Notes under the pieces: model-generated
Seen by the model: only the letters and a program-made list of their open reading frames with translations
Database searches by the model: none
Told to the model about the DNA's origin: nothing
DNA from: a virus
DNA: 64,000 bases
Virus record (IMG/VR): IMGVR_UViG_3300030616_000506
Location: 80,546-144,545 of that record
Reading direction: 5' to 3' (one strand)
Part shown: piece by piece, positions 41,189-64,000 of the stretch
How the letters are laid out: each line of letters opens with the position of its first letter
How positions within the stretch are numbered: position 1 is the first letter of the stretch
Position numbers and translations under genes: made by a program

Positions 41189-41230
41189 ATTACATCTCCT
41201 GTACAAATACTATCTCAATAATCTTAGGTA

Positions 41231-44200
41231 TTAAAGCTCTTCTATCATTAATTTGTCCTTGCTTATTTTCATTACACATTTTTTATCTATTGCTCCATAC
41301 TTATGGGGATTTTCTGACTTTAACATCTTAACATAATAGAACTCTTCTCCATCATCTCCTATTATGTATCCATAATGATCATCCCAAACTAAACCTACCC
41401 ATCCACAATCTTCATCTCCAGGTATAGAATATAGATAAGTAGTCTTTAATACTCTAAAGTAATCACCCTTTTTCATAATGATGCAACCATAGCCTCATCT
41501 TCCGTTAATTCTGTAGCACATTTATCCCAATAGTATCTGCTACAATATATTATTCCTATATTTCCTTCTATAGGATCTACATATAATTTATACTTAAGAC
41601 TAACTCCATACATACAACCATCAGGTTGATGTTTTACTCCTGCTAATCTAATCACATAATGCTCTTCTCTGAAAGTATCATTGTATCTATAATATCTACC
41701 TATCTTCATTGATGTCATAAACTATCAACAATTAATTCATCAAGAGTATCATAAAATTTAAACATCTGATGCCAACCAAATTCACTGTCTCCTTTCCATA
41801 TCCAATGATACTTAACTTTAGGATTATGGGGATAATTTGATTTTATTAATTCATATTTATAAACTACTTTACACTCTTTAAATATCTTACCTACTATATA
41901 AAAACCTATTTTATCTATTTTAAAATACTTTCCTTCTTTAGATTTCATACATCATCATCTCATCTAATAGATTTTTACCTAAATAAGATAGTAACTTTTT
42001 CTTATTATTAAATCTGACAGATACATTCTTATCATCATCTGCACTTATTAAAATAACTTCATAATCATCATCAACACCACCATGAATAACTAATGATAAT
42101 CTATTATCCTTTAATTTATAAACCCATAAATAGTAATCATAATTAACCACATAGAATACATCTGGATATATTAAATTAATTAATTCTTCTACTTCATTAC
42201 ATATTCTATTCTTCATAATAGTTCAACCATAACTTCTTCATAAGATAGTTTCTTACAAATTTCATTCTTGAAGTTTAAACCAATCCATCTATCTCCCCAC
42301 ATCCATTGAAGTTTTCCAATAGTTTTTATTATTTTAAATTTATATTGATTAATTTTATTTTTATTTATAATTTTTAATATATAAACTCCGTGTAAATATC
42401 TAGACTCATATAATATATAGTCTCCTATCTCAAATTTATCATAGGGTCTCATATCTTATCAACTATATTTGCATCTATTACATAAGTAAAGTCATGATAC
42501 ATTCTTATTGAATACTTATAATCATCATTCTCTATATCATTTGTATAAGATAATCTATTAACTACCCAATCAAAATCCTTTTTATTAAGTAAACCAAATG
42601 AGCCTAAACTATAATATTCTCCATAAAACTTTTTATTATAAGATAACTTTAAATCAGCTCTATTCATTAAGTTCTTAACTAATGGCATAGATATATCTAT
42701 AGCCTCAGGATTTATTGTTAAATATACTCCTCCCCAATTCTTATCATCATTACTCTTATATATAGTTCCCCATATATTACCAGTTATCTTTTCATTATCA
42801 CTTTTTCTAGTGATTATATATTCCCCTATCTTTTTCTTCATACTAACTCCCTAAATTAATCTATGTAAGATATAAGGTGATACTTCCTCTCTAAATTTAG
42901 AATAAGCCTTTGAGTTATTTTCATATACTTTCTTAACATTATCTATAATATCTTCCAATAATCCAATAGCTCTATCATCTAATTGTCCTAACATAAATCT
43001 ATCATCATCACTTAATCCTGCACCAAGAACAATTCTATAACCATAATAAGCATCTTTTTTACTAAAGTTTAAATTTATTAAATCAGATTCAATTGATACC
43101 CTCATTTTATCATAATTTATAATAGATAAATCTTGTATACCTTCACTATAATTATTTTCAATCTTAATCCTATTAGTATTTAATTTTATTTCATTATCCT
43201 TTAAATCTATATCCCTCCATGCTAATGCACATTTCCTAAATGCTCTAAATATTTCTTTCTTATCCTCTTTTTTTATGTAATCCTCTATATCAGGATTTCT
43301 TTCTACTATATATAAGATAGCTTTAAAGTCATCCATCATCTTTGTTGCATCTTTATCATGTTGTCTATAACTCCAATAGTAATATCTATCATTAGGTTTA
43401 AAGGCTAATCCTCTAGAATTTAACCATAATTCTTTTTCCCATGTAGATTCCTTTACCTTATCGGATATCTTTATATTTGTTTCTATTCTACCCGATATTA
43501 TTCCATGAAAGGATTTAAAGTATAATTCCCTAAATGAATTCCTAATATTACTTAAGCTATTCTCTCCCCTCATATATGTATTAACTTCATCTATTAAACT
43601 TTCTAATCCCTCTACTTCATTTGTATTATCTATAATAAACTTTTCTGTTATTTTCTCTTTCTTTTCCTTTATATCATTTATTTGATTTTCTAGTTTATCC
43701 TTCTCTAAATCAAGTTCTTCTATTTTTTTATTTACATCTTCTATCTTTTTATTTATATCCACATTTTACCTCCTATAAACTCTCAACTATCATTTCATCT
43801 TTACTTATCTTTTTATAATCCCAAGCATCCTTATGACAAGTTATTCCTATTAATCTACTGTGCCTCATAAATTCATTAGTTATAATACTAGTAAATATCT
43901 GTTTTAGTTTAACTTCTATTAAATTATTATATTGTTTTACTGACTCAATATAAATAAATGATTTATATTTACCATCTGGATATATATAGTATTCTCCCTT
44001 TTTAGGTATCATAGTAATTCAACCATAGCCTCATCTTTAGATAATTTCTTTAAATCAAAAGCATATCTTTTTATACCATTAGTATGATTTATAAAATATT
44101 CTCCATATATATTTGGTATATATAATAATGGACATATTAAGTAGTAATCAGTATCTACTTCCTCCTTTATGATTCCATATATAGGATTATCTTTATATGG

Positions 44201-45742
44201 ATAATCTGATTTAACTAAATCTCCTTTCTTAAATTTCATAATAACTCTACCATTACTTCATCTCTATTTGCTATCCTTAAACATTTATCATCAAACAATT
44301 CTGTTCTTCCTTTAATCCTTCCATTTAGAAATCTAACAATATATGGATATTTTTTAATTGGATATACATCTATTATTTCTGCTATTAATCCAACTTGATT
44401 CCTATAATATGTAACCTTTGGATGAAGTATTATCTTCACATAATCTCCTACTTTATACTTCATAACAATTCTACCATTACTTCATCTTTATTCTTAATAA
44501 AAGTTATATCTATTACTGATGAATCTAAATTAAAATGTCCTTTTTCTCCTACATCCCAAACACTATTCTCATCAGCATATATAACTTTACAATAAGGAAA
44601 TTTATTTATTCTTGTATTATATTCTAATACTACAAAATATACTTCAAATGATTTGTAATATTTATATATAGCCTTTATATAATCTCCCTTTTTAAATTTC
44701 ATAAATTAAACACCATTATTTCATCATCAGTTAACTTCCTATCAATTTCCTCTTCAGATAATAAAAACTCAAACTCAGTGTTAACATAACTTGAATTTAG
44801 TATCTTAACTAGATAGGGATATTTTCTATCCTTTCTTAATTTAGTTACTATTGCTACCTTATTCTCAAATCCATCATAAATTGTTTTTCCTATTAATATA
44901 TAATCATTTAATTTATATAATAGTTTCTTGAATCTCATAACATCTCTACCATAATTTCATCATTAGATAATTTTTTATAATCAACACTATCACTAAAATA
45001 AATCTTTGTATTAGGATTAAATAATGATTCCCCTTCATAGCAATAAATATAATTACTCTCTATTATAGTAATTCTAAATAATTCTCCTTCATGATTTTTA
45101 ATTACATCTCCTTCTTTAAACTTCATAATAATTCTACCATTAATTCTTCCTTTAATTTATTAATGTCATTAACCTTAAACCATCTCCTATGTAAAGCAGG
45201 AAATATAAAACTTAAATTTATAGGGAGATTCCAGTATGTTATATCATTTGTATTAATTTTACTATCATTAGTTTTCTTATATAAAACTTTAACTTCAACA
45301 TAATTAAAATCTGCTCCAGCCATATACCTTTTCTTTAATTCTAATATCCTTCTAATCTCTAACACAAATATATTAACCTTATTATCATCTACTTGTGCAA
45401 TTATATCTCCTATTTTCATAAAAATTCAACCATAAGACTATCCAGTATATCATCTTCATAGCACTCTAATATATCTACTTCCTTATCAGATATCTTTTTC
45501 CAAACTTCTGACCACATTAAGCTAGATTTTTCATTAGTAAAATTCTCATCTACCTCTCTAATCCAAGTTCCTTTATTATTTGCTGTGATTATTCTAGAAG
45601 TTTCCTTTATTAGAACAGCAGGAAACAAATCATATTTACCCTTCTCAATATCAATTATATTAGCCAACCAATAATATATAATATAATCTTTAGTTTCCTT
45701 TACTATATTAAAAGTCATATTCCTATAATGTTTTCTTAACAT
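41231..45742 (-). other. Tandem array of 15 small ORFs (plus one 303-aa ORF) mostly ending in the shared C-terminal tag, many with a KOW/SH3-like (K/I)GD(Y/V) start
   Basis: Termini MIEEL, MVASL, IVDSL, MMYEI, MVELL x5, IVDKI, IVESL, MVFNL, MVEML, MVEFL; mostly ATGA overlaps. Confidence 0.85.
42851..43762 (-). CDS. Hypothetical protein with N-terminal coiled coil
   Basis: 303 aa ORF within the tag array; ends ILHRLI (loose tag variant). Confidence 0.6.
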   Translation of the reverse strand: MDINKKIEDVNKKIEELDLEKDKLENQINDIKEKKEKITEKFIIDNTNEVEGLESLIDEVNTYMRGENSLSNIRNSFRELYFKSFHGIISGRIETNIKISDKVKESTWEKELWLNSRGLAFKPNDRYYYWSYRQHDKDATKMMDDFKAILYIVERNPDIEDYIKKEDKKEIFRAFRKCALAWRDIDLKDNEIKLNTNRIKIENNYSEGIQDLSIINYDKMRVSIESDLINLNFSKKDAYYGYRIVLGAGLSDDDRFMLGQLDDRAIGLLEDIIDNVKKVYENNSKAYSKFREEVSPYILHRLI

Positions 45743-45753
45743 TTCTTTATAAT

Positions 45754-47094
45754 TTAATTTCTTTTTGGTAATTCTATCACTTGTCCATAAGGAAAATCTT
45801 TAGAATCTGCTCTCCAATGTCCAGCTACTACCCATAAGACAGGCATATTAACTTGACTTTTAGGAGGAAATGATGTATAACCATCCGTAAAGGCTATAAC
45901 AAATTTAGATTGAGGTTTATTCTTATTAATCCAATCAAATACGGGAATGTGGCTAGTGCCTCCTCCTCCCTTAAGATTCTTACCTATTCTCTCAACTACT
46001 TCAGATGCTTGAGCATTTCTCATGGGATGAATACCATTTACTTGACAATCACAATCTATTACCGTTAAATCAACATTCTTAAAACTATTACATATACTAG
46101 ATATTTCAGATATAAATTCTGCTAATTCTTTTTGACTTATACTTCCTGATGTATCTACTGCTACCATTACATCTATACTTTCCCTAACAGTATCAGGTAG
46201 ATATATTCCTGTGCTATAACTTCTTTTAGATGGTTTAGCCCAAGTAAAATCTATAGGAATTTGATTTGTTATATATCTATAAAGTAATCCTTTCCAATCA
46301 ATATAAGTTTCCATTAATTGTCCAACTACTCTCTCCATACCTGCTGGTAAATCTCCTCTTTGCCTAGCATAAGTGCAAGCATCTACTAAAGTCTTTTTCC
46401 AATCAACTTGTTTATCAGATATCTTCTTACCATTCTTATTACCAGTTCCATTACATTTAGGGCAATCCTTATCTCCTACCTTACCTGTTCCATTACAGTT
46501 ATCACACTTACCATTTTTCTTTTTATCACCTTTACCATCACCATTACCATAGATATGTTTATCAAAACCCTTAACACCATTCTTCTCTAGGTATTTCTTA
46601 ATGGCTTTCATATCCTTTTTAATCTTTTTAGATAGTCCTCTATATAGTTTATCATATACTTCTTCAGATGTTTTCTCAGATGCTTTCTTAATAGTAATAC
46701 CAAATATAGTTATCTCTCCATTATAGGGATTAATAGCATTTTCAGGTAAACTCATACCATCATCTAATAGCATAGAATTAATTACTGTATCTGATGCTAT
46801 ATTAAATAACTCGTGGTTTTTACCCTTACCTCTCTCTAAATGTTCTAATGCACAATGCATTACTTCATGTGCCATTACTCCCTTTATCTGGTCATCTGTT
46901 AGTTTATTTATAAAATCTGAATTAAAATACAGATTACCATACATATCTACTCCTGCTGTTTCTATTTCAGGTTGCTCTATAAAGGTTAAGTGCATAGTTA
47001 AATAACTAAAGAAGGGTTTCTCTTTTTGTAATTGCACTCTAGCCCTTATAAGTTTTTCTTCTGCTGTTAAATCTAGGTTTAATATTCCACTCAT
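45754..47094 (-). CDS. DUF2201-type metallopeptidase-like plus VWA domain protein with inserted DnaJ-type zinc finger
   Basis: TAGVD, AHEVMH (HExxH), NIASD, CDNCNGTG/CPKCNGTG, MIDAS VDTSGS, GGGGT, FTDG. Confidence 0.88.
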   Translation of the reverse strand: MSGILNLDLTAEEKLIRARVQLQKEKPFFSYLTMHLTFIEQPEIETAGVDMYGNLYFNSDFINKLTDDQIKGVMAHEVMHCALEHLERGKGKNHELFNIASDTVINSMLLDDGMSLPENAINPYNGEITIFGITIKKASEKTSEEVYDKLYRGLSKKIKKDMKAIKKYLEKNGVKGFDKHIYGNGDGKGDKKKNGKCDNCNGTGKVGDKDCPKCNGTGNKNGKKISDKQVDWKKTLVDACTYARQRGDLPAGMERVVGQLMETYIDWKGLLYRYITNQIPIDFTWAKPSKRSYSTGIYLPDTVRESIDVMVAVDTSGSISQKELAEFISEISSICNSFKNVDLTVIDCDCQVNGIHPMRNAQASEVVERIGKNLKGGGGTSHIPVFDWINKNKPQSKFVIAFTDGYTSFPPKSQVNMPVLWVVAGHWRADSKDFPYGQVIELPKRN

Positions 47095-47095
47095 A

Positions 47096-47302
47096 TTACA
47101 ACTCCTCTATCATTATTTCCTCTCTTAATTTTTTAGTATCAAAATTTATAGCTATATACTTTGCTATACATTCATATATTTTACCTCTCCTTTCTATTAC
47201 GGGATATGCTTCACAATAGTCATTTCTACAATCCTCTATCGTATTCCAATCTTCTATTATATCTAGTAAATCATCTATCTTTTTCTCTATTTCTTTATTC
47301 AT
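47096..47302 (-). CDS. Hypothetical protein with C-terminal tag (EEIMIEEL)
   Basis: ORF track; tag; lies between AAA and VWA genes. Confidence 0.6.
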   Translation of the reverse strand: MNKEIEKKIDDLLDIIEDWNTIEDCRNDYCEAYPVIERRGKIYECIAKYIAINFDTKKLREEIMIEEL

Positions 47303-47544
47303 ATTGCATACACCATAACTTCCTCTAAAGTTAATTGAAATATTTTATCATCACTATATACAAGTAAATATGTATCAGGATTACCATTTTCATCTGCGTA
47401 TATACATTGAAAGGAATATAGATTATCTACATCTAGAAATCTAATTACCTTACCAACATATACACAACCAAAATCAATTTCTTTTCCTGATATTACCTTT
47501 ATATATTGTCCTATCTCAAGTTTATCATAAGTAATCTTTTTCAT
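47299..47544 (-). CDS. KOW/SH3-like small protein with C-terminal tag (EEVMVYAI)
   Basis: LEIGQYIKV, tag. Confidence 0.6.
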   Translation of the reverse strand: MKKITYDKLEIGQYIKVISGKEIDFGCVYVGKVIRFLDVDNLYSFQCIYADENGNPDTYLLVYSDDKIFQLTLEEVMVYAI

Positions 47545-47548
47545 AAGA

Positions 47549-48694
47549 TTAAGTCAATAGATACTTTTGATATTTTTTGCTAATAGGTTTCCAAGATTTA
47601 AGAGTAGTTACATACTTCTTAAAGGATGAAGGATGTTTATTCTTTGCAAATCTCAAGAGAAGTATAGCAAATTCTGGTTGAATAACATTTGCTATTTGTA
47701 ATACTTTCTCTAGGTTTTCCTTCTTATTATTCATAGCATACCATTCTGCAACCATACCCAATAGAGAATACTTTAAATCCATTTCTTTAATATTGGCTGC
47801 CTTTTCAGGTCTAGCTAATATCTCATTAAGATTAATGTTCTTTTGTAATCTTAAGAAGGATTCAAATTCACTAGCTGCACCAACTCCAACACTAACACAA
47901 GCATATTGATATACTTGTTTTAAATCCTTAACACCAGATATAAGTTTATTACAATACTTACCCCAACTTCTAGGTGTAGGAAATGCTCTCTCATTACTAT
48001 CAGCTTTTATTTTAGGATTTAATAGAGTAGGTCTTTGTATTAAAAAGGATACTATCCTCATATCAATACCCTTCTCTAATGCCCATTCTCCCCAATCATT
48101 CTTACACTCTTGTGTAATATGGGGTATCTTTAATGTAGCATGACAGAATCTATTCTGTAAAGGTCTAGGCAAATCATATACATTTGCTTTATCCTCTATC
48201 CTATTACCAGCTGCTATTAAACCAACACCTTCAGCTAGTGCAACTTCTCCCATTTCTCTATCTAATATTAACTGATAAGCACCAGCCTGTATAGAAGGAG
48301 GAGCTAAGTTTATCTCATCAAAGAATATAATACCCATAGCATTCTTTAATGTTGCTACCAATAACCAGAATGGTATTTTCCATTCACAAGTATCTTTACC
48401 ATTTAAGGATGGTAGTCCTCTTAAGTCACTTGGGTCTAATTGGGATAACCTAATATCCATTAGAAAGAAATACTTTTCAGGATTATCAGCAACTTTATGC
48501 TTCTCTTCCTTTGTAAGTTTATTCCATCTAACATAGATTCTCCCGTGTTTTCTTGCTAATTCTTCAGCCTTCTTGTCCACAGTTTCTGATTTTCCTATAC
48601 CAGTTGCACCCCATATATATAATGGAATGTTAGATTCATAATGGACATCTACTAGGTTTTCTAATTCTTTATGGTCTACTTCTGCTACTGCCAT
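47549..48694 (-). CDS. MoxR/dynein-related AAA+ ATPase (partner of the VWA protein)
   Basis: Walker A GATGIGKS, DLRGLP, Walker B FFDEIN, AAGN, LQNRF, FPTPRSW. Confidence 0.9.
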   Translation of the reverse strand: MAVAEVDHKELENLVDVHYESNIPLYIWGATGIGKSETVDKKAEELARKHGRIYVRWNKLTKEEKHKVADNPEKYFFLMDIRLSQLDPSDLRGLPSLNGKDTCEWKIPFWLLVATLKNAMGIIFFDEINLAPPSIQAGAYQLILDREMGEVALAEGVGLIAAGNRIEDKANVYDLPRPLQNRFCHATLKIPHITQECKNDWGEWALEKGIDMRIVSFLIQRPTLLNPKIKADSNERAFPTPRSWGKYCNKLISGVKDLKQVYQYACVSVGVGAASEFESFLRLQKNINLNEILARPEKAANIKEMDLKYSLLGMVAEWYAMNNKKENLEKVLQIANVIQPEFAILLLRFAKNKHPSSFKKYVTTLKSWKPISKKYQKYLLT

Positions 48695-48705
48695 ATATTT
48701 TTCTC

Positions 48706-50979
48706 CTATAATTTTTCTACCATTACTTCATCATTAGTCATAATCTTAAATTGATAAGAATAATAAGATTCATCATAAGGTTTCCAAGTAGAGTGTCTTC
48801 TATCAATAAAAGCTACTTTGTATTCTACCCTTTTCTTACAAGAACTATCCCATTTAACTATTCCTTTAATCTTTCCTATCTTTCCAGTATCCCAACCCTT
48901 TATTATCCTTACATATTGTCCTAATTTACCTTTTTGTTTCATAATCTCTCCACTAATATTTTATCCTTTATCTTTTTCCTCAATATTATGTAATCCTTAA
49001 ACTGCGTATAGAAACTTATTAGAAAACAATGTAGATGATACTTATCATATCTAGGTCTACTTGAATGCCCCCAATATTCTCCTGCTAATAATCTAACTAC
49101 ATCATCTCCCTCTTTAATAGTTTCTCCACAATATTCACAATTACACTCTAGATGCTTATACATCTTTCCTAACTTTATTTCGTGTGAAGTCATAATTTAT
49201 CAACCAACATCTTTTCTTTCCATTTTTCTAGAGAATCTTTATCTAATTCTAAATATAATTGTTCAATACAATAACTACATATTCTTTTATGTGAATATCC
49301 CCATTGAGTTCTATATTCAAATGATATCCTATCTATATCTTTAGGAATAGTTTTACTACATACTGAACATACTTGTCTACCATTTTCTCCCTTATTTAAT
49401 CTATTTCTATATCTATCACTCATTACAATTCATCCAATATCATTTGATTAACAATCTCCTCCTCAATTAAGGGTGTCAATTCAACTTTACCTAATCCATT
49501 TTGTTTGATTTCTCTTAATAAACTTAAACCTTTACTTAAGGATAATACGTGTCCTTTATTTTCCACATATCCTCCATTTCTTATTATCTTTGAAATATGA
49601 TAGCACAATAATCCTCCTCTTTTTCTAAAGAAGATTAAACAACCACAATAAGATTTAGCATAAGCTATTGCTTCTCTAAACATAGCTCTCTTTATAGTTC
49701 TAGTTTCTCCCCATCCTATACTGAAGTATTGTATTCCACAATCTCCTAATACATCTCTAACGGTTGTTGTATCCTCAACATCAGGCATCTCTACTAAACT
49801 CTCCTTTAATCTTAATCTATAAAACTTTTTAAGTTTATTTAAATATTTAGTTTCCATTCTAGCAAATTCACCTATACCATTTTCAAAGTATAATGTAGTT
49901 ACATCATCTTCTGTCTTATAATAGGTAGGTCTAGTGCAATAATAATTTCCTATATCAAACCCTTTATATTTACTAACATCATCAGGTTTATATTCTATAT
50001 AGTATATCTTTCTTTTTTTATCCCAATAATGAGGTTTACTATACAACTTACATTCACTCATTATATCACTCTATAATCCTCATCACCCTCAATAAAGTAA
50101 TAAGGTTTATTTCTATCTTTAAAGTAGATTGTGTATCTACCATCTTCTCCTTTTAATATATTTGTTACTTTTCCTTTTTGTCCATTACTAACTTCTATTT
50201 TATCTCCAACTTTTACCATTTTATAATGCCTCTATAAATGCTTCTTTCTTACTAATCTTTTTAATCTCATTTCTATACCAATAACCTTGAAACTCATAGT
50301 TCTTACCACTGGATATATCTCCTCTAGGATTATAATTAACTACATATCTTTTTCTAAAAAATCTTCCTTTTTCTATAGCTACTATCTGCCCAATCTCATT
50401 AGCTTTATGAACTAATGTTCCATAAACATTAAATTCTTTTTTAACTCTAACGTAATCTCCTATCTTAAGCATTAAATCACTTATCGAACTTACAGTTTCC
50501 TTTATATACCTTACTTAAGCAAATATTATCATTATCCTTATCAGCATAATCACAATACTTACATAGCTTTTTATCTATTTTTGCTTTCATAATTCATCCT
50601 CTCTTAATAATCTAATCTTATTAAATATAATATGTTTATATTCAGATGCCAATGATTGTGCATAGTATATATCATTAAATTTATAAACTATAATCTCACA
50701 CTCAGTATCATCTTTAGAAATTCTAGACCAATATATATGTTTATCTTTCATATTTCCATCCTATAATTTACTTATTAATGCCTTATCCAAATCATCTTGA
50801 GTAGCATCTCTAAATTTATACTGTTCATTATCTACCTCTACACCTACAAATTCATCTCCATTATAATTAAAGATGACCATATATTTTTTAGAGTTATTAG
50901 ATTTTCTACATAAGAACTTCCATTCATCTTCTAAATTTGGAATGTAAGCTACCATTATTTTCTCTTTAGATACGGACAA
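48706..50979 (-). other. Second cluster of tagged ORFs (48706, 48939, 49190, 49423, 50221, 50761)
   Basis: Termini MVEKL, LVERL, LVDKL, ILDEL, FIEAL, LISKL; two carry CxxC...CxxC/HxxC zinc fingers. Confidence 0.75.
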
Positions 50980-51773
50980 TCATATCTCTCCTTATATTTA
51001 ACATTAGTTATTCTTAATAAATCTTTAGGTTTATTCAATTCTAATAAAGGTGTTTTACTAAATGAACAACCATAAACTTTACCTTGCTCATTTATACTGA
51101 TTATATCTCTACCAAAATGACAAGGCTTATCCCAACCTTGATATTTATTTTGAGTTAATATCATATTAGTTAAATCATCTACATAGAAATGTTTATACTT
51201 AAAGGTTGGTGCATAATATAATGCTCTAAACTTTAAGATATCAGGAGCTTTCCAATTCTTTGGATATAATGCAAATACTCTTTCTATCTTTGCACTATTG
51301 AAAAAGTAATGCAGTAAACTTAAAAATGATTTAGGAGTATTTAACCAGTAATTATTTATTAGAAAATTACAACCAACTCTAGTATATTTACTTAACTCTC
51401 TAGTAGTCATACAGTAATTATGTATATCTTGATTAGATTTTATTTTATGTTCATCAAAGGATACACTAACCATCTCTATATCATCAACATAATACTTCAT
51501 AGGTAATGTTCCATTAGTAGTAACATTAGTAATTAATCCATATTTTTTAGCTTCCCTTGAGAAATCTCTCACAAACTCTGGATACATAAAAGGCTCACCA
51601 CCACCTAAAGCTACTTGTGGTGTAAGCTTTGCTAGATAAGGTATTAATTCCTTAAACCAATTATGAGATTTATTATTATCTGTTTTCTTTGGTCTATAAC
51701 AGAATTTACAATCCATATTACAATCAGTTGTAAAGTGTAATGCTATAACTTTATATCTTTTTTCCTTCATCAA
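50955..51773 (-). CDS. Radical SAM enzyme with SPASM/Twitch-like C-terminal Cys motif
   Basis: CNMDCKFC, GGGEP, TTNG, VSVSFD; PC...ISINEQGKVYGCSF...CP. Confidence 0.9.
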   Translation of the reverse strand: MMKEKRYKVIALHFTTDCNMDCKFCYRPKKTDNNKSHNWFKELIPYLAKLTPQVALGGGEPFMYPEFVRDFSREAKKYGLITNVTTNGTLPMKYYVDDIEMVSVSFDEHKIKSNQDIHNYCMTTRELSKYTRVGCNFLINNYWLNTPKSFLSLLHYFFNSAKIERVFALYPKNWKAPDILKFRALYYAPTFKYKHFYVDDLTNMILTQNKYQGWDKPCHFGRDIISINEQGKVYGCSFSKTPLLELNKPKDLLRITNVKYKERYDCPYLKRK

Positions 51774-53905: not shown

Positions 53906-54211
53906 TTACATACCACCACAATCTGTATAATTCTCACTAATAAATGGAGCTATATTATCTAACATATGACTAATATCATCTCCTTGCTCTTCTATTAAGA
54001 CAAGATGTAATAATTCGTGGGATATAGTTGAGCATATAGTCTTATAATTTTCTTCCTTTAAAAATCTAGGATTAAGATGTATCCTATTATCTTCCATTAC
54101 TGCTCCTGTCCATATACCATTCCAACCAAAAGTAAAAATATATTCCTTATCTAACTCATCATATTTCTTTATGGTTATATTACTTCCATCTACAATAGAC
54201 ATAATAATCAC
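53906..54211 (-). CDS. Small HExxH zincin-like protein
   Basis: IHLNP...ISHELLH. Confidence 0.55.
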   Translation of the reverse strand: MIIMSIVDGSNITIKKYDELDKEYIFTFGWNGIWTGAVMEDNRIHLNPRFLKEENYKTICSTISHELLHLVLIEEQGDDISHMLDNIAPFISENYTDCGGM

Positions 54212-55357
54212 TCTGCATAAGTATAATCATTTGGAGGATATGTTTTATTCTGTAAATCCTCAATGTATTTAGTCATCTCTAGTTTCTTTAGTTCATCTAC
54301 TTTCTTTTTTAATCTTTCCATTCTGTCTTCCTCACTCTCATAACTACAATCTACATCATACATTACAGTTCACAACCACATACCCAGCATTCATCTGCAT
54401 TGATATTATTTCCCATTCCACAATCTTTACATATCTTTTTATTCTTCATCACATACACCTTCCCAACATTTTAATAGAGTTTGTATCTTATTTTCTTTTC
54501 CCCATTTCTTTAAATCTTCATAAGCTTCTTTGTGATAAACTTTTATTATCTTTGTAGCTAGATTAATATCACCAGCTGGTCTAGATATATTTATAGTTTC
54601 TTTAATCTCCTTAAACCATTTCTTTTTAGTTCTTTCATAAGGTATATATTTCCATACAGTAGCAAATTTACCTGCACAGGATACCTGAAAATAATAATCA
54701 TCTCCAAAATAATTATCTAGCTCTTTCCTAAATATATCATCTTTCTTTTTTCTTAACATATTTGTGCATATTTCTTCCTTCATATATATTCCTCTATATA
54801 AGATGATATCTCTTTAATATTTCATAGTCCTTAAAGTATAGTAAATCCCATATCTGAAACAGCTTACCCAATCCCATATGGTTACATACACCCAAGAAAC
54901 TACTGTATGTTTGCTCTCTACTTTTTTTACTCTTATATTTCTTTCTCATTTTATTCCTCTTTATAATTACACATTATATCTGAACAACCTAATACCTGTC
55001 CACCACCAGCACAACAATACCATATCTTTAGTGGCTTTCCACAGATAGGACATTTATCTCCTATTTTCATTTCAGTCACTCATCAAAAACTTTTATCTTT
55101 AATAACCATAATTGCATAAGGTATCCAAGCCAATAAATTAAATGGGAATATTTTATCACTAATGGCTAACAGTCCTAATGATACTATTGCACCAAATAGA
55201 AAAGTATATGTTTTTACTTTCATTTTCATTTCAATTACTCTCACTTTAATATTCTACTCGCTAATCTATGTATTCTTTCATGTTGTTTTAATTCTTTTTT
55301 ATTTAGTTTATACCAAACTAATCCTATATTTCTTGTTTTGTATATGTAAGTAATTTT

Positions 55358-55372
55358 CATTTTCAATCACTC
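55358..55372 (-). promoter_or_regulatory. Archaeal-type RBS/start context GAGTGATTGAAAATG
   Basis: Identical 15-mer at 56957-56971, near-identical at 55487-55500 and before several other short ORFs; complementary to the archaeal 16S 3' tail. Confidence 0.6.
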
Positions 55373-55814
55373 TTTTATAATTTCTTTTAAAGTATTAGTA
55401 ACATCAACTCTATTATAATACTTTTTTAAATCTGGTATTTGAGTTTCTAAATAATCTGCTAACCAATTAGGCATTAATATTATATCCATTTCAATCACTC
55501 AACTTTATAAAATTTCTTTTAACTATAAGCTCCTCATATCTTATATCAACATTCATCTTATTGTAATCTATTAAAATTTGATACACCCAAATATTAGAGT
55601 TACCTTTAGTATCAAGATGTATTAAGTCTATAAATTTATCTCCTATTATCATTTTATTTCTTTTCCTTTCTACAACAAGTGCATCTCCAACTATCATCTT
55701 TCATTTTATTATGCACTCTTTTTCCTTTACCATATATCTTATCCTGTTGAGGACATTCACAATCACAGGATAATATCTTACAGTTTGTTTCCTTTTTAGT
55801 TTTATCTCCTTCCG

Positions 55815-56177
55815 TCATAAATATTCCACCATTACTCTATCCCTTAACTCAATGGGTATTTCATTATCCTTTAATTTTCTTAACTTTAAAATTTCTATCC
55901 ACGAACTAGAAGCATACTTATCTCCTTCAACTAATTCCTTTAATAGATATCCCCCATATAATAATAAATCACTCAACATTCCTTCATTATCTTTATATCT
56001 ATTATATTCAAGATAGTAACTCATATTTTCTATATGCAAACAAAATAATCTATCCATAATATATATCCTAAAGAGTTTATTATTAATTCCTGCTATATTA
56101 ATAGGAGTAGCACTAACATAAGTTCTAATCTGACTATCCTCATCTATTTCAGGTAGTTTATTCCTCTTTAATTTCAT
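55815..56177 (-). CDS. Hypothetical protein with C-terminal tag (RDRVMVEYL)
   Basis: ORF track; tag. Confidence 0.6.
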   Translation of the reverse strand: MKLKRNKLPEIDEDSQIRTYVSATPINIAGINNKLFRIYIMDRLFCLHIENMSYYLEYNRYKDNEGMLSDLLLYGGYLLKELVEGDKYASSSWIEILKLRKLKDNEIPIELRDRVMVEYL

Positions 56178-56608
56178 CCATTAATTCCCCAATAACTTTA
56201 AGCAATTTAGAATGAACAGTTTTTATTCCTTCTTTATAGCCATCTTTATAACCTTCATCATACTTATCATTCATAAAGATTACCTCTTACTTTATTATAT
56301 AAAATCTATTAGCCAAATGTTTAGTGAATATTTCTATATTGTCATCTGTCAGTAAACTTTCATTAAAAGCAACTATCCTTATATCCTTATGTTTATCTAA
56401 AAGATAGTCCACTATTAAATGAATATCTGCTCTACTTAATTTCTTCATCTAATTTCCTCTTACTTATTATTATTTATTCCTAATTATAGAAATTATTTTA
56501 TATATCCAAGTTGCTAACTGCCAACCAGCAATAAAACTAACTATTATTATATAGATAATCTCTACTGTTCCTATTTCTATATTCATTTTACTACCTCACT
56601 TTTTTAAC

Positions 56609-56667
56609 CCTATAAAATTGTTCCATATATAGAACTTTTTGCCTATAAAATATTCCATATATAGAAC
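56609..56667. repeat. Tandem ~27-bp direct repeat with internal dyad
   Basis: CCTATAAAAT(TG/A)TTCCATATATAGAAC at 56609-56635 and 56642-56667. Confidence 0.75.
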
Positions 56668-57822
56668 AAAATGGCTTAAAACGATTTTTAATCACTAAAC
56701 TCTCCAATGTTTAGCATAAAAACCTATTTCCTAACCATTTATCCAGAATTAAAGGAAGATAAATATACCCCTTATTTCTTTTTATTCACTTTCTTATTTT
56801 CCTTTTCAAACCATTCCTTTATATCCTTCCATTCGTTAGGTGTAAACATCATAATTTACATCTCCTTTTTATAATCATATATTTACCATACATTTTCTTT
56901 ATATATTTAGTAACCCTGTAATCTATAATCCTATTTCTAATCTTGTTAAGGATAGTCATTTTCAATCACTCAAAATCATAAGCATTATCTATATACCAAC
57001 CTTTAGGATTATCTCTACCTAATGTAGTATCCCCTATTTTATCTGCAAGACTATCATATGCTTTATATTCAAGCATACTATCAGTATCATTTTCACATAC
57101 ATCTACCAATACATATATATGCTCTTTATCATTGCAGAAATGATATTCCAATATATTTGTTTTCATTTTAATCACTCTATTTCATTCACTAAAGGATTAC
57201 TCTCTTTAGATTTTTTAACTGTAATCTCTATACAATATAATTCCCCACTCTCTAAATATGTTGGCTTTATATCTATATCTGAATGGGTTTTATACCATAT
57301 CCTTTTCCAATTTGTCTTATTTTTAATCATTCCCCATCACCTATTTTATCTAATCATCTACAAAATAATACCAAAACTTTTTACCATTTTTTATTTCAAA
57401 ACCCCTATATATATTTTTATCCAATTTACAGGCACATCTTAAAGCATCTCTAATATTATTAAACTTTGGTTTATCTTTACTCACATTACTAATCTCCTTT
57501 TATTAATTCCTTTCCACACTTACTACATCTGTAAACATCATCTATATAAGAATACACCAATTCATGTCTACACATTTTAATCACTCTTTTTAAATGTGAT
57601 ATGGGTTTACTTTTTAATTTTATATATAGGTAAAAGAAACCCAACCTTAAAGAAACCTATTGTTTATTCTAATATTTTACAATCTATTATATTTGTATCA
57701 TCAAAGTATATACGAATTACTGTTCTTTCTTTATTTATAAAGGCTATATCCATAACCTTATTTCCTTCTAATCTTATTTCATTATTCATTTATATCATCT
57801 CCTTTTTATAGGAGGGGATTAA

Positions 57823-57970
57823 GATATAGAGCAAGTATTAAAACTTGTATCTGAATTGAACAGATAACCCACTAATTATATTTATTCGTATAGTAAAGAA
57901 TAGTTTATCACTCTATACGAATATTTATATCTAATGGAAACCTAACCATAGGATAACGCCACTCTATATC
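57823..57970 (-). ncRNA. Candidate structured non-coding RNA with T-loop hairpin
   Basis: Closing 9-bp stem plus internal stems of 5, 6 and 11+ bp; GTTCAATTC loop on the minus strand. Confidence 0.5.
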
Positions 57971-58423
57971 CTTGTTTTATTCACGATTTTCTAACTCTTT
58001 TTGTATAATTGCTATTTGCTCTAAAAACCAAAAGTCTATTTGTCCATTATCAAATGCTAATGAGTATTCTTCAAGTTTTTTAAGCAACTTTTCTTTACTC
58101 ATTTTTGAGTAATCCATTTTAACACCTTTATTATAAATATAACTCTACTCAATTATACATATTTGCTGGATATTTATTCAGTAAATCTTCTACAATTTTT
58201 CTATTTGTAATCATTACTACACTACCTAATGTAGCAACAATTTTACCTGAATTTTTATCATATATTTTATATCCAAGAAATTCCATATCATTATTCATAT
58301 TACTACCATTGTTTTATAGTATGAACATTTCAAGCACTTTTTCTGCTTCTTCTTTTGAACAACCTGTTATTAGGTTGATTTTCTTTAGTGTTTCTTTTAC
58401 ATATTCCATTTCTATTTCTCCAT

Positions 58424-58741
58424 TTAAATTTTATTCTGAATGTTATGAAAGATTTTTGAATGTAGATATGCAGGTAAGCACAATAGATTACCTGATAGAT
58501 ATACTACTTTACCAAAAAGCATAAAACAGTATATCTTTTTACCTAATCTATTGTCTTTTTTATTCCTATTAATATGGTGTATTTCATATCCTTTAGGAAT
58601 TTTTCCATATCTTAATTCCCATAAATATCTATGTTGAAATTCTAATTTTGTATCGCCATTTTTATTCATACGATACTCATAGATATATCCTTGCTTATCA
58701 TAGGAATTAAGCAAAGTTTCGTATTGCATTTTACTCATCAT
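58424..58741 (-). CDS. HNH endonuclease-like protein
   Basis: HRYLWE..YGKIPKGYEIHHINRNKKDNR...NL...H. Confidence 0.75.
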   Translation of the reverse strand: MMSKMQYETLLNSYDKQGYIYEYRMNKNGDTKLEFQHRYLWELRYGKIPKGYEIHHINRNKKDNRLGKKIYCFMLFGKVVYLSGNLLCLPAYLHSKIFHNIQNKI

Positions 58742-59273
58742 CTATATATATGAATGGTAACTCATAAGGAATGAATACATTAAACACACTTTCATAAGTG
58801 CAATATAATTTACTCACTATCCTATGCACTATTTTATTGTAGTGAGAATACCTATGGATTTTAAATACAAACTTTTCAAAAATCCATTCAGCAATCACTA
58901 CACATTTTTTACCTAACATTTAATCACTATTTGTAAAGTTTTTCAAAGATACTATCACTTGCTATATCACATTCAATACTATATTTACAATGTTTTTCCT
59001 GAATTTTCCATAGCATTTTATAATTAAATTTCAAGCATAGGATACATATTATTTGATGTAACCTATAATGAAATTCATTCACTAATCTATGTATCATTTT
59101 TACTCACTATTTATAATTCTCTTATTCTAATTCCACAGATAACAGTATTCATAATTTCAAGCATTTCTTTATGCTCTTTTTTACTATCTACTGTTGCTAC
59201 TACTGTAAATCCATTCACTATTTCATCTCTCCTTTTATTGCTACTTAAAGCGTAATCCTAATAAAAAATAAAT

Positions 59274-59344
59274 TCAGGATACCATTACTATTTTTTTTTA
59301 CCATAACTATTATTGTATGTGGATTTCTACTCACAGTATCCTGA
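59274..59344 (-). terminator. Stem-loop closed by a 9-bp stem followed by a T-tract
   Basis: TCAGGATAC / GTATCCTGA; ATTTATTTTTT follows on the minus strand; just downstream of ORF 59362..59550. Confidence 0.45.
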
Positions 59345-59361
59345 TTGTTTTAAGCACATAA

Positions 59362-59550
59362 TTATGCTTTCTTTTCGGTAAGGTAACCAGATAGGTAATG
59401 AATTTTACCGTCAATGACATGCTGTCCATATAATCTGAACATTTTGTTACCATTACTTGATTTTGATTTTGTAGCAGTAACAGTTCCGATTTCAATAGCA
59501 ACTTTTTCATTACCATTGCTGGATTTACCTAATTCTACAACTTTACTCAT
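59362..59550 (-). CDS. Small basic protein with internal SSNGN repeat
   Basis: GGAG RBS upstream; KSSNGNEK / KSSNGNKM. Confidence 0.55.
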   Translation of the reverse strand: MSKVVELGKSSNGNEKVAIEIGTVTATKSKSSNGNKMFRLYGQHVIDGKIHYLSGYLTEKKA

Positions 59551-60286
59551 AGAATTTATCTCCTTTTTAGTTGTCTTTTTTAAAGTAGAGATTATAAAAC
59601 TACTGTTACAAAGTAACTCTAATTTTTAAGCACTTATTGTATCTGCTTTAAGGTTGTAATGAAGTTAAATTTAATCACATATACAGAAACCTTTTTATGG
59701 GTAGGTAAACACCAAATAAAATCACTACAATACCTATATTTACAGCAATAAGCACTTATTTATTCATATTTTAATTGATATTTTTACCTTATACCTATCC
59801 AAAAGAAATAAGATTTATTTAATATTTGTAATTATTTTTCTATTATTATAAAATAATCCTATATGTAAACATCTTTTATACTTTAAGAATGAACTATTTT
59901 CATTCCAAGTATTATTAGGAAAGGTTAATATATCAAATATTATATTTCCATTTTTATTTACATATACTATCTGATTTTTATTAACTATATGTTTTATTTT
60001 ATTCATATTCTCACAACTCTTTTTGGGATATAAGATAAAAAGTAAGGATAATAACCTATATTTAAGCACATATGGTAATGGCTTTTAAAGTATCCATATA
60101 GTTATTGCTATTATCCTTACGAATAACTGTTGCTATATTTCAAGCACATTGTTATTACTGTTTTTACTGTTATTATTAGTCATAGTGGATAATAATACCA
60201 TAAAATATCTTTTACTAATGATATTTATTTATACTATAAGATAAATTTTAGAATAACCAATATTCTTTTAAATATCCTATAATAAA

Positions 60287-60357
60287 TTGAATTGTTAAAG
60301 GTTTAAAAGATGTTTAATTATTGGTTAATTAAACCTTAAACCTTTAACTTAATTCAA
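60287..60357. repeat. Long imperfect inverted repeat (7+13+9 bp arms)
   Basis: TTGAATT-GTTAAAGGTTTAA..GTTTAATTA / TAATTAAAC..TTAAACCTTTAAC..AATTCAA. Confidence 0.75.
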
Positions 60358-60379
60358 GTTTCATGGTTTATCGGTATTT

Positions 60380-60440
60380 CATATTTAAACGTTTGCATAA
60401 AGTTTATATAGTTTGTCAATAACATATTTAAACTTTATGG
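60380..60440 (-). promoter_or_regulatory. Cluster of three archaeal TATA-like boxes (putative strong early promoter)
   Basis: Minus strand AAAGTTTAAATA, ACAAACTATATAAAC, AACGTTTAAATA in tandem. Confidence 0.55.
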
Positions 60441-60669
60441 TTATTTTATTTGCTATAAAAATAAAAATATCAAAATAAAATTTATATCTTATAGGATAAA
60501 ACTTTAAGATATAATCTTATTTTCAATTTAAACCTATCTAAAATCAATCACAATCAAAAAACTATTTAGATAGGTATATTATCATTAATAAAAAAATAAT
60601 GTCTTAAATGATTTTAAAATAAATGTCAAATAAAAATAACAGTTAAAAAAAAAATAAAAAAAAAAGATT

Positions 60670-62220
60670 TTATTGTTTATGTAATTGTTTTATTTCTTTT
60701 ATTCTATTTTGACATCTAATTATTTGTTTTTGTTTTAAATTCTGTTGTGTTATCCAATATTTAGATTGTTTATTATCTATTGAATTAACTTTATTTGATT
60801 TTTTGATTAAAGAAATATTTTGTTTTAACCAATAGTTTAATTTATCTTTATCAATAACTGTTTTATCTATTAGTTTAATACCGTTTAATCTTATTAAATC
60901 ATAATCATAATTTAATATAGCATTTTTCTTTATATCATTTAACCAATAGTTTAAAACATCTATTTGTTTTTTATATAAACCATTATTATAAAATATTCTT
61001 TTATTATTCATTAATAATGATAAATACTTATCAAATAAAGATAAATCATTTTTGTTTAAGGTTTTATTGTAAATACTTATTTTTTTACCTTTAACAATTT
61101 TATAAACCTTAACATAATTATCTTTAAAATCAAATAAATTATTGTTAAAGAATAGATTATTTTTGATAAATGATTTTAGTTTTTTATCTATATTACTATT
61201 TAACAATAGGTTTTTTGTTTTTTCAAAATAGTAATTATTTGTTTTTATCATATTAATTAAACTATTGAATATTTCTAAAAACATATTACCATTAACAGTT
61301 TTTTGTTTTTTCTTTAAGTTATGATAACTAAATTTATGTTTTGTTTTGTTATCATTTAGAAAATATAAATAATCCCGATATACTTTAGATATAAACCTAT
61401 TAGATAATAGTTTTTTATTAACAGTTTTTTTACCAAATAAATTTATTATTTCATAAGGTTTATATAATTCAATATATCCATTATTTTCTAATAATTCTTT
61501 ATTATAATATAATCTATTTTTTCTTAATTCTAATTTATCTTTAGAATTTTTAATCGTATCATTATATATTTTTCTTTTAAAAGGATAACCATAATTATTA
61601 ATTGGTTTATTAAATGTATTTAAATTATCTGTTAAACCTAAATCTGTTAATCTAACAGTTATAATTTTTAAATTACTATCTAAAGATTTTAATTCACAAT
61701 CATTTTTTAAATGATAGCAAAAACCTTTAGAAATAATAAACTGGTTTATTAAATCATTATTTTTGATATTACCATTTTTATATCTGTTATATAAACCTAT
61801 ATTAAAATTACATCTAATATTGTGTTTATGTTTTTTAGAATTATAGATAAAAGGTTTATATTTTTCAATAGAAATATTATTTTCATTATTTTTATTGTTA
61901 TTATCTTTATTGTTTTTATTTTCATTTAAAGATTTTAACAATTTAGTTTTATTTCTTATTTCTTTATTGTAATTTTTCTTTAAGTTAGATAATACTTTAT
62001 TTCTATTTGATATTATCTTATTTTTAGGTTTAAAATTATTTTTGTTTTTATCTATTAAAAATGTTAAACCTAACTGTTTTTTATGTTTAGTTTTATGTTT
62101 TATTATAGGTTTATTTATCTTATTTTCTTTAAGATATTTGTTTATATCTTTTTTGTTAGTCAACAGCGTAATTTTACCATTTTTATTTATGGTTATAGAT
62201 TTTATTTTTTCGTTTTTCAT
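60670..62220 (-). CDS. Lys/Asn-rich hypothetical protein
   Basis: 516-codon open frame in very AT-rich DNA with AAGGTGT RBS before the ATG. Confidence 0.6.
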   Translation of the reverse strand: MKNEKIKSITINKNGKITLLTNKKDINKYLKENKINKPIIKHKTKHKKQLGLTFLIDKNKNNFKPKNKIISNRNKVLSNLKKNYNKEIRNKTKLLKSLNENKNNKDNNNKNNENNISIEKYKPFIYNSKKHKHNIRCNFNIGLYNRYKNGNIKNNDLINQFIISKGFCYHLKNDCELKSLDSNLKIITVRLTDLGLTDNLNTFNKPINNYGYPFKRKIYNDTIKNSKDKLELRKNRLYYNKELLENNGYIELYKPYEIINLFGKKTVNKKLLSNRFISKVYRDYLYFLNDNKTKHKFSYHNLKKKQKTVNGNMFLEIFNSLINMIKTNNYYFEKTKNLLLNSNIDKKLKSFIKNNLFFNNNLFDFKDNYVKVYKIVKGKKISIYNKTLNKNDLSLFDKYLSLLMNNKRIFYNNGLYKKQIDVLNYWLNDIKKNAILNYDYDLIRLNGIKLIDKTVIDKDKLNYWLKQNISLIKKSNKVNSIDNKQSKYWITQQNLKQKQIIRCQNRIKEIKQLHKQ

Positions 62221-63320
62221 ATTTTACACCTTTTTTATTTAATCTTTAAACATATAGTTTAAAGTTGATATTTCTTTTATGTTTATTTCTTTAATTAGAT
62301 TTATGGTTTTATCTAATTGACTAATTAACTTATTTTCTATTTCTATTCTAGGTTTAACTAATATTTCATTTTTCATAATATCTCCATAAATATACAACAA
62401 AAATTTACCATTAATCATTTATCTATACTATAAGGAGAAATAATTATCTAAATCTTAATATAAAGTAGATAGAATAAAAACCTTAATTTTATTTATTCGC
62501 TAAAAATCTAAATTAACATCTGTTAATATTATTATCTAGTTGTAAAATCTTAAAATTTTATGGTTAATGTTATACCCTATTCCCATAACTTTATATATAA
62601 AAACTTACTACTTATTATAAAGTATATATATATAAATATATATTTGAAACAAATGTTAAAAAGATAAAAATAAAATGTAACAAATGTAAGATATTAACAA
62701 CTGTTAATCAATTTAGATAATAATAAAATGTTTTAGTTTATAGATATAGTTTAATAAAAAAACTATTATTATCCATGGTTACAAATGTAAATATAATGAT
62801 AATATAAAAATATACATAAATTATTATTTAGGATTATATTAAATAATTTATAATTAAAGATAAATTAAATTGAATTATCTTTAAATTAATTAATTAATTA
62901 ATAATATATTAATAAAAGAATAAAAGATATATAGGTTTATTATTCCCATATATCTATACTATTAGAGATTGTTAATTTATCTTTATTATAGATAAATTCT
63001 ATATTGTCTTTATCTAATATCTTAAACATATTACAATCTATTTTCTATCTATTAATATACTTTATTTGTATGTAGTTATGTAAGTAAATATGCAACAGTA
63101 AAATATCGTTATAGTATAAGGTTTATATCTGTTGTTTATGTGTTATAAAACATCTTTTCGTTATACTATTGTATATCTAAATTGGTTATATCTTAAACTT
63201 ATTGAATATTACATATAATTATATATTAAGATATAAGAAAAATATTAACTATTAGAGTATTAAAATTAAGTAATAACTTAATTACATATACATATTAGAT
63301 TGTTATATTCAAATTACAAA

Positions 63321-63385
63321 TTGACTAACTAACTATTGACTATCTTAAACAAAAAACCTATTGACTAATAGTCAAAAATTGACTA
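63321..63385. repeat. Cluster of five TTGACTA heptamers in direct and inverted orientation
   Basis: TTGACTA at 63321, 63336, 63361, 63379; TAGTCAA at 63369. Confidence 0.7.
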
Positions 63386-64000
63386 ACTAATATTACAATA
63401 TAGATATATCATATTATCAAAATTTTAAGCACTAAATTCTTTATTCATTATTATTTAGATTTAAACTACTCAAAAAATTTCTAATCAAAAAATTATATAT
63501 TAATATTAAAAAAATAAAGTTTGAATAAAAATAACAGAAAAAAATAAAAATGGCAATATTATCTATCTAGTATTATAATCTAGATTATTATATTAATAAC
63601 AACATAAATAAGCCTTAAAGTATATACAAATATATACATATACTGCTTAGTATCCCACCTCCGGTGTAACGGAAACTCAAAAAGCAGTCCTGATATCCTC
63701 ATCGCAGCACCTTAATTTTATACCCCCATTTTTCACCAAAATAACGATAAATTGTAGCAACATACTATATAAAGGTTTTGGTAGCCCAACAGGAGTGGAG
63801 TACTCAAATTATGAAAAGTTATGCTCGTGTATATTATTATGGAGGAAGGAAAAAATATTTAAACCTTTCTACAATAAGTATAAATAAGATGAATTCGTTA
63901 ATTACGGAGAGCCAATAGCTAAGGCGGGAATGATGGTGGGAAACATTTTACTTATTCTATTCTATATTAATTAGATGATATAATGACTAAAGTTAATAAG

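Follow-up and report, generated by a model that had tools for sequence, protein, structure and literature searches.

The minus-strand arm that closes the right-hand part of an uncultivated tailed-virus genome from marine sediment has been purged of seven short words (GATC, GTAC, CTWAG, CATG, GANTC, AGCT and CTAG) in three or four nested steps that are cumulative toward the arm head. The genome is a single contig of 144,545 bases (IMG/VR record IMGVR_UViG_3300030616_000506, hereafter G000), and the window, the whole stretch of DNA analysed here, is its final 64 kb; positions refer to the window unless the genome is named. The depleted core occupies 41.6-62.4 kb and GATC scarcity reaches 37.7 kb, so that the arm measures ~21-25 kb, ~15% of the genome. 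We consider it reasonably likely that this arm is early, first-exposed DNA and that host restriction endonucleases selected the loss of their short palindromic recognition words from it.

Nested loss of palindromic words

An initial annotation, made by eye, had described GATC as sparse before and absent after 41574-41577, and the computed positions agree. GATC is sparse over 37682-41377, its last copy in the window stands at 41574-41577, and the next one around the circle lies at genome ~195. GTAC, said to be absent from ~41.2 to 63.8 kb, is missing from 41201-63800. The stretch 55.9-62.3 kb had been reported to lack GATC, GTAC, AGCT, CTAG and TCGA, which matches the AGCT-free span (55528-63917), the CTAG-free span (55906-62348) and the final TCGA at 50484, the TCGA zero being insignificant alone. 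Of the two palindromes described as persisting, TGCA is indeed not depleted in the zone, whereas CATG falls to 14 copies against ~46 expected. Two words beyond that list were lost as well, namely CTNAG (mainly CTWAG) and GANTC: CTWAG occurs a single time between 41223 and 63646, and the final CTNAG and GANTC lie at 50701 and 49233, respectively.

Over 41578-62300, a maximal-order Markov model predicted 56 GATC, 33 GTAC, 46 CATG and 33 CTAAG/CTTAG, of which 0, 0, 14 and 1 were observed. When the interval was taken to 64000, no GATC was found against 43-59 expected and one GTAC against ~34, using order-0, order-1 and maximal-order models built on the region. Nearer the arm head (55901-62300), AGCT was observed 0 times against 12 expected and CTAG once against 14, and no GANTC was present in zone D (defined below) to 62420 where 12 were expected. 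For each depleted word, the longest gap in the entire 144.5 kb falls in the zone. That of GATC measures 22.6 kb, whereas its next-longest gap is 3.7 kb and its sites lie on average 443 bp apart, in a genome that carries >300 GATC and >240 GTAC sites.

Step borders were located by a two-rate change-point fit against locally estimated expectations. The support intervals were 55-57 kb for AGCT, 55-56.5 kb for CTAG, 49.5-50.5 kb for GANTC, 43.5-49 kb for CATG, 41.5-43 kb for GTAC, 40-44 kb for CTWAG and 38-42 kb for GATC. Those of AGCT, GANTC and GTAC are mutually exclusive, and that of CTAG likewise lies apart from GANTC and GTAC, which indicates that the steps are real and upholds the nested zones that the annotation had proposed. 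The zones are as follows (counts as observed/expected):

37683..41577, minus strand: zone B, transition; GATC 2/14, other palindromes normal; contains the GP88-like, metallophosphatase and pyrimidine-dimer glycosylase genes
41578..49250, minus strand: zone C1; GATC 0/25, GTAC 0/13, CTWAG 1/13; CATG mildly low (10/18); GANTC, AGCT and CTAG normal
49251..55900, minus strand: zone C2; the losses of C1 plus CATG 1/17 and GANTC 0/10; AGCT and CTAG still normal
55901..62420, minus strand: zone D, the arm head, 22% G+C; the losses of C2 plus AGCT 0/12 and CTAG 2/14

All seven words are lost in zone D, five (GATC, GTAC, CTWAG, CATG and GANTC) in C2 and the first three of these in C1, while zone B is low in GATC only.

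Local composition in this AT-rich DNA, whether of bases, trinucleotides or codons, had to be weighed as the source of the loss, since G+C falls stepwise along the arm from 0.28 to 0.22 and the G content also drops toward the right end. We ranked depletion over all 136 4-mer, 512 5-mer and 2080 6-mer reverse-complement classes with Bonferroni correction. Over 41578-62300 only GATC, GTAC, CATG and CTAAG/CTTAG survived, and over 55901-62300 GATC, AGCT and CTAG did so, with GAATC/GATTC narrowly below the cut-off. Every surviving word is a palindrome, or a palindrome with one free centre base; none of the 6-bp palindromes among the ranked classes was depleted independently. Markov models of order 0, order 1 and maximal order still expect 25-59 copies of GATC, GTAC and CTWAG. 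Similarly, when synonymous codons were shuffled among the zone's own genes, keeping the amino acids and the zone's biased codon pool (n=300), the shuffles still yielded 19-24 copies of these three words (GATC 18.7+-3.5, GTAC 23.2, CTWAG 23.9) together with 28.0 CATG and 32.8 GANTC, and 0/300 were as low as the observed counts.

The sub-words GAT, ATC, GTA, TAC, CTAA and TAAG occur at normal frequency, indicating that only the full palindromes are missing. Strand-specific avoidance of sub-words was ruled out, as the component trinucleotides and the neighbouring non-palindromic 4-mers stand at control frequencies. The control palindromes GTNAC, CANTG, ACNGT, TCNGA, TGWCA and TGCA are not depleted either. 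Composition does account for the zeros of CCWGG, GGNCC, GCWGC and TCGA, which are not significant alone because few copies were expected. For the seven main words it is refuted, and we leave it practically no weight; the Markov observed/expected counts, which the annotation had proposed as its check, confirmed the depletion. These data support that the missing words behave as restriction-type targets, the loss being limited to double-strand palindromes.

The arm in its genome and in related viruses

The last 192 bases of the contig are ~95% identical to its first 192 (127 bases exact), and G006, an independent assembly from another sample that is 99% identical, reads across the contig junction without a break; the genome therefore assembles as a circle. 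Its main parts are:

genome 0-49 kb, plus strand: packaging/structural module with large terminase (TerL), portal, protease, HK97-type capsid protein and a 2057-aa (amino acid) tape-measure protein
genome 49 to 143 kb, minus strand, first part: sugar/phosphonate/radical-SAM island (~39 kb; glycan genes)
genome 49 to 143 kb, minus strand, next: ribonucleotide reductase, family B polymerase, Rad51/RadA-like recombinase
genome 49 to 143 kb, minus strand, last: ~80 small genes, mostly orphan, up to the AT-rich divergent region (window 62.4-64.0 kb)
62421..64000, no strand: divergent region, AT-rich (~20% G+C), non-coding, between the putatively early arm and the plus-strand packaging/structural module

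Every gene at genome 49-143 kb is on the minus strand. The genes of the arm are all co-oriented, their direction leading off from the divergent region, and TerL and portal lie next to that region. Coding sequence, in the form of tiny orphan genes, fills 91% of the arm, which differs between 99%-identical strains; alignment with G006 revealed insertions, deletions and replaced segments at 55.1-55.6, 56.7 and 62.9-63.4 kb. Placement at a divergent control region, tiny co-oriented orphan genes and strain-level variability would fit early genes, and from its position and look the arm appears to be an early, hypervariable gene block beside the packaging genes. The left end of the G006 contig was considered as coinciding with the GANTC step, and this was rejected when the alignment placed that end at window 51762.

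Beyond the arm head the depletion ends abruptly. Within 62421..64000, CTAG returns three times and CATG, GTAC, AGCT and CCGG once each, and GATC resumes in the first plus-strand gene. In G006 this region carries an additional segment:

L054:55-2339, replacing window 62923-63386: G006 insert of 2.3 kb that bears many CTAG and, within TGATCTA/TAGATCA repeats, ~27 GATC over 1.7 kb

Avoidance of the words is not demanded of DNA that lies a few hundred bases past the first early gene. Also in the G006 insert, a G+C-rich patch is surrounded by about eight TCTAGCACG-like iterons, and two or three small open reading frames (ORFs) lie on the plus strand; the insert may serve in replication, partition or regulation, or act as decoy DNA. 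A G+C-richer patch at 63640-63800, conserved in G006 (L054:2590-2750), might encode a small RNA or act as a signal for packaging or replication; when the intergenic region, this patch included, was scanned with Rfam and for tRNAs, no match was obtained. A scan for sigma-70 promoters and terminators returned fewer matches than shuffled sequences and was uninformative in such AT-rich DNA.

Further analyses showed that IMG/VR holds a clade with the same architecture, in which about eight related contigs are depleted in the same arm with different word sets and step positions. The main examples are (counts as for the zones):

G001 (137.8 kb), arm 18.3-33.6 kb: lost GATC 1/42 and CTNAG 1/~31 (CTNAG zone to 38.0 kb); kept GTAC, AGCT and CTAG
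G002, arm 16-38.9 kb: lost CATG 3/70, GATC 2/62, GTAC 5/54, CTAG 5/48, AGCT 1/26, ACGT 3/25 and CCWGG 0/14; kept CTNAG
G008 (ATPase 71% identical), a 16-18 kb stretch: lost almost every 4-bp palindrome; kept TGCA
L057, locus 9.8-21.5 kb: lost GATC 2/27, GTAC 1/22, CATG 2/23 and GANTC 2/21; kept AGCT and CTNAG

Steps recur in these genomes too. The CTAG loss of L057 is confined to the first 5.7 kb, G002 has staggered borders (GANTC 25-27.5 kb, CATG 15.5-16.5 kb, CTAG 10-11.5 kb), and the border intervals of GATC and CTNAG in G001 are likewise non-overlapping. Several shorter contigs from the TerL flank show further word combinations. The outer border is syntenic in G000, G001, G002 and G008, where it coincides with or closely follows the orthologues of the pyrimidine-dimer glycosylase, metallophosphatase and GP88-like genes; the GP88-like orthologue of G001 marks the outermost step of that genome (CTNAG), and that of G002 marks its CATG step. 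The trait is conserved while the word set and the zone length per word vary, as selection by changing host enzymes predicts. The interpretation proposed in the annotation is thus partly supported, by the restriction of the loss to palindromes, the exclusion of composition and the loss of other palindromes in relatives; its detail on CATG persistence did not stand.

At the CATG step of G002 (15.5-16.5 kb) lies a C5 cytosine methyltransferase-like fragment (contig 16438-16824, L035, minus strand; PF00145, N-terminal third; 212-aa open frame). The divergent intergenic region of G001 holds 57 CATG in the 4-kb bin 16-20 kb (cluster from 16684), as well as TCGA, TGCA and GATC clusters, and G002 and G004 have TCGA and GGCC clusters at the equivalent position.

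These comparisons bear on whether recombination created the steps, with D, C2 and C1 being blocks acquired from different viruses adapted to different host enzymes. Such mosaic ancestry would suit the hypervariable arm with its replaced segments, the stepwise fall in G+C and the word sets that vary among relatives. We nevertheless regard it as very unlikely. The lost sets are strictly cumulative toward the arm head, an order that random mosaicism does not predict, and the same polarity and syntenic outer border recur in G001, G002, G008 and L057 despite 40-70% protein identity. Mosaicism also leaves the sparing of each genome's remainder unexplained.

Genes of the arm, protection functions and host hints

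The genes of the arm that matched a family or stand out by size or arrangement are listed below:

37176..37769, minus strand: GP88-like gene (PF17338), the outermost limit of GATC scarcity in G000
40772..41206, minus strand: pyrimidine-dimer DNA glycosylase gene (PF03013, Pyr_excise), just inside the return point of GTAC, CTWAG, CCWGG and GATC (41201-41574)
45754-47094, minus strand: DUF2201/VWA metallopeptidase-like gene, zone C1
47549-48694, minus strand: MoxR/CobS-like ATPase gene, zone C1
zone C1, minus strand: tandem family of ~75-80-aa genes
50955-51773, minus strand: radical SAM gene, zone C2, the rest of which consists of small orphan genes
58424-58741, minus strand: HNH gene, zone D
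60670-62220, minus strand: first large gene, zone D; 516 aa, isoelectric point 10, no family

Searches with ~45 proteins of the zone and its border (Pfam, PHROGs) recognised HNH, DUF2201/VWA, MoxR/CobS-like ATPase, radical SAM, Pyr_excise, metallophosphatase and GP88 families, plus one weak SprT-like match. Zone D contains many ORFs of 35-70 aa, each with its own AGGAG-type ribosome site. The 516-aa first early protein is a very basic orphan with only 3 homologues and no PDB relative. Approximately 30 small early proteins (36606-56177, minus strand) end in ...(D/E)E(V/A)MVE(L/x)L. The DNA coding for this C-terminal tag, ATGGTnGARnTnTTATGA, overlaps the ATGA start/stop junction of the next gene and a GGTGGA/GGTAGA Shine-Dalgarno-like stretch, and the tag may in part be a translational-coupling signal. 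Many of the tagged genes also share N-termini (MKFKKGD...), which points to a tandem paralogue family.

We then considered what could protect the rest of the genome. G000 gave no match to PF02086, PF01555, PF00145, PF00303 or PF01702, the families searched, while control genomes did; within these families, no recognisable DNA methyltransferase, hydroxymethylase or TGT/DpdA is present. Modification by the virus itself is thus no obvious means of protecting the remaining genome, and a protector acting in trans, as in T5 and T7-like phages, is likelier. It could still be proposed that a covalent modification made by the virus, perhaps through the sugar/phosphonate island, covers the bulk of the DNA and that the arm, left unmodified (for example, to be read by a host polymerase), avoids the sites. 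The ~39-kb glycan/phosphonate/radical-SAM island and several glycosyltransferases would fit such a scheme. We hold it to be highly improbable, given the negative searches and given that no modification system we know of skips a 20-kb segment. In addition, GATC and CATG are mildly under-represented outside the early arm too (observed/expected (O/E) 0.6-0.7), a deficit that would be pointless in fully masked DNA. A search for T7-type RNA polymerase families had no match, and neither had the controls, so that it was uninformative.

Several features outside the arm hint at the host. An Alba-fold protein of 92 aa (PF01918, E 1e-9) is encoded between terminase and portal at genome 3831-4109 (L001:3831-4109, plus strand), with a counterpart at L057:5291-5572. 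The nearest solved structures of the family B polymerase (window 22313-24868) are archaeal. The large terminase (genome 1416-3821; L001:1416-3821, plus strand; 801 aa) contains an insert of ~330 residues with Hint and LAGLIDADG homing-endonuclease domains, that is, an intein, which the terminases of relatives (469-496 aa) do not have; in G003, a distant relative, the terminase open frame of 1361 aa suggests several inserts. The Alba-fold protein, the archaeal-type polymerase and the TerL intein hint at an archaeal host. Elsewhere, an HNH endonuclease gene of 175 aa (genome 5897-6424, L001, plus strand) lies on a 505-bp insertion missing from G006 and is probably a mobile homing endonuclease. 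The virion module includes an ORF of 3344 aa (genome 16819-26853; L048:320-10354, plus strand) with no Pfam match, whose size recalls virion-packaged giant proteins. Over the whole genome CpG is strongly under-represented (O/E 0.22), and the 144.5 kb hold no GCGC and a single CGCG.

Proposed polar entry, its alternatives and what the steps may record

Avoidance confined to one segment has precedents among phages. T5 and BF23 are restricted only via sites in the first-step-transfer region (PMC10644984); in T5, as that paper reports citing Davison and Brunel 1979, sites elsewhere are tolerated and a product of the leading segment protects later-entering DNA. Likewise, whether Murciavirus is sensitive to the Mme2I Type I system is decided solely by motifs within the region injected first, and the study's authors considered regional avoidance sensible only for genomes with fixed ends (PMC12455610). 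Palindrome avoidance across whole phage genomes has been surveyed (Rusinov et al. 2018, PMC6286503, as cited in PMC8594841), and the leading regions of conjugative plasmids are described as having few restriction targets and many anti-defence genes (work cited in PMC12455610).

In the features examined, the virus analysed here fits the class of leading-region site avoidance, with words absent from one contiguous segment and present elsewhere, and with palindromes only affected. It resembles the first-step-transfer (pre-early) region of T5, BF23 and Tequintavirus in having a defined, putatively leading segment of small, putatively early genes without restriction sites, and the arm, as the T5 segment, adjoins a non-coding region, which in T5 is repeat-rich. 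However, the T5 segment measures ~8-10 kb, lies in the long terminal repeat and ends at a non-coding injection-stop, the feature of T5-type two-step transfer, whereas the present one measures 21-25 kb and no stop region was found at its inner borders. Also unlike T5, seven words of 4-5 bp, each expected dozens of times, are lost here, and the loss is stepped, not all-or-none. In Murciavirus and T7-like phages only early-injected motifs decide sensitivity, genes are co-oriented with entry, and the leading region is hypervariable and thought to bear anti-defence genes (PMC12455610); the TerL of the present virus is distantly related to T7 gp19. In contrast, the Murciavirus case rests on one long Type I motif in a 40-kb podovirus, whereas here a 144-kb virus that encodes a tape-measure protein has lost many Type II-like palindromes, and the late module here is on the opposite strand, unlike in T7-like phages. 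As in the Rusinov survey, in so far as the citing paper conveys it, short Type II-type palindromes are lost and the mild GATC/CATG deficit is genome-wide, although the strong loss is limited to ~15% of the genome and graded within. Conjugative plasmids, as summarised in the citing work, similarly carry first-entering DNA purged of targets and loaded with early counter-defence genes, but they are a different element that enters by single-strand transfer. We know of no nested multi-site steps described in their leading regions. What is new is the number of words, the clean nesting, the recurrence across an uncultured clade and the setting with archaeal hints.

Selection on first-exposed DNA would operate as follows. 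The genome would have fixed ends near 62.4-63.4 kb, and the arm would be the leading part on entry into the cell, moving in slowly or in stages and in the direction in which it is transcribed. Products of the arm would disarm restriction, or screen the DNA, while the other ~120 kb is not yet vulnerable, and this would account for the near-normal site densities outside the arm. In that case the steps would be a gradient of exposure time: DNA nearest the entering end, exposed longest, would avoid even weak or rare enzymes, and DNA further in would avoid only the most dangerous cutters (GATC, GTAC, CTNAG). TerL shows at most 28% identity (<=28%) to cultured-phage terminases, and its only cultured relatives include T7-type terminases, a kinship that lends weak support to fixed ends. 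Searches for cultured relatives found none (megablast of the zone and tblastn of the family B polymerase against 50,697 phage records).

Several observations count against this scenario. The circular assembly, in which any long terminal repeat would be collapsed, is compatible with a circularly permuted, headful-packaged genome, which would have no fixed first-entering end. At the borders near ~55.7, ~49.2, ~41.5 and ~37.7 kb the DNA is densely coding and has no notable repeats, and no non-coding, repeat-rich injection-stop region is present. The purge has exceptions, since a 1.3-kb G006-specific insert within zone D has 5 CTAG. The early status of the arm is itself drawn from position, gene size and variability. 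The ~45 proteins searched included no known anti-restriction family, and the AlphaFold model of the 516-aa protein (mean pLDDT 48.6) was unusable and not taken to a fold search. Finally, a host search comparing the DegT-like aminotransferase with genome contigs returned only <=34% identity, to unrelated lineages.

Some of these points suit an explanation in which host restriction enzymes select without any polarity of entry. All of the genome would come in together, and only the early unit would have to stay intact until its anti-restriction, end-protection and recombination/repair proteins are made, other cuts then being sealed or repaired; the steps would mirror how soon after the promoter each gene is needed. 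The circular assembly and the lack of an injection-stop-like region at the inner borders agree with this, as do the Rad51/RadA-like recombinase, family B polymerase and pyrimidine-dimer glycosylase encoded just beyond the zone. On the other hand, with >300 GATC and >240 GTAC in 144 kb, a double-strand cut would be almost inevitable and difficult to mend within one infection, the known region-limited cases are all tied to polar, staged entry (PMC10644984, PMC12455610), and the sharp right edge, with GATC-rich DNA just beyond it in G006, fits a physical end better than distance from a promoter. We therefore find entry without polarity unlikely, and judge it less likely than first exposure of the arm, given the >300 GATC elsewhere.

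Taking polar entry further, we tentatively propose, as a possibility open to considerable doubt, that the stepped borders are a readable record of slow polar delivery across a clade of ~140-kb marine-sediment viruses, possibly of archaea, that word distances gauge the danger of host enzymes, and that palindrome-packed inserts are last-entering or decoy DNA. If so, the distance that separates the entering end from the first tolerated site of a given palindrome would measure the danger of the matching enzyme relative to neutralisation time, and a site-by-distance matrix would yield the polarity of entry, the reach of the pre-protection phase, and the host restriction repertoire with its relative strengths. 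The palindrome-packed inserts outside the arm (27 GATC/1.7 kb in G006, 57 CATG per 4-kb bin in G001) would be part of the same game.

To our knowledge, region-limited avoidance has been shown experimentally in only a few cultured phages, with one or two sites each. Here, sequence alone gives a much higher resolution, revealing the loss of seven words in three to four nested steps and its recurrence, with different sets, in about eight relatives, in a clade that has no cultured member and whose host may be archaeal. Since the strong loss affects ~15% of the genome, whole-genome avoidance statistics would greatly understate it, and such statistics can miss strong local selection. If first exposure of the arm is the cause, the trait would offer a cheap way to orient uncultivated viral genomes, marking the entering end and the end of the pre-protection phase. 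Fixed termini would be predicted, host restriction specificities could be read from the missing words, and undiscovered anti-restriction genes would be expected among the orphan genes of zones D to C1.

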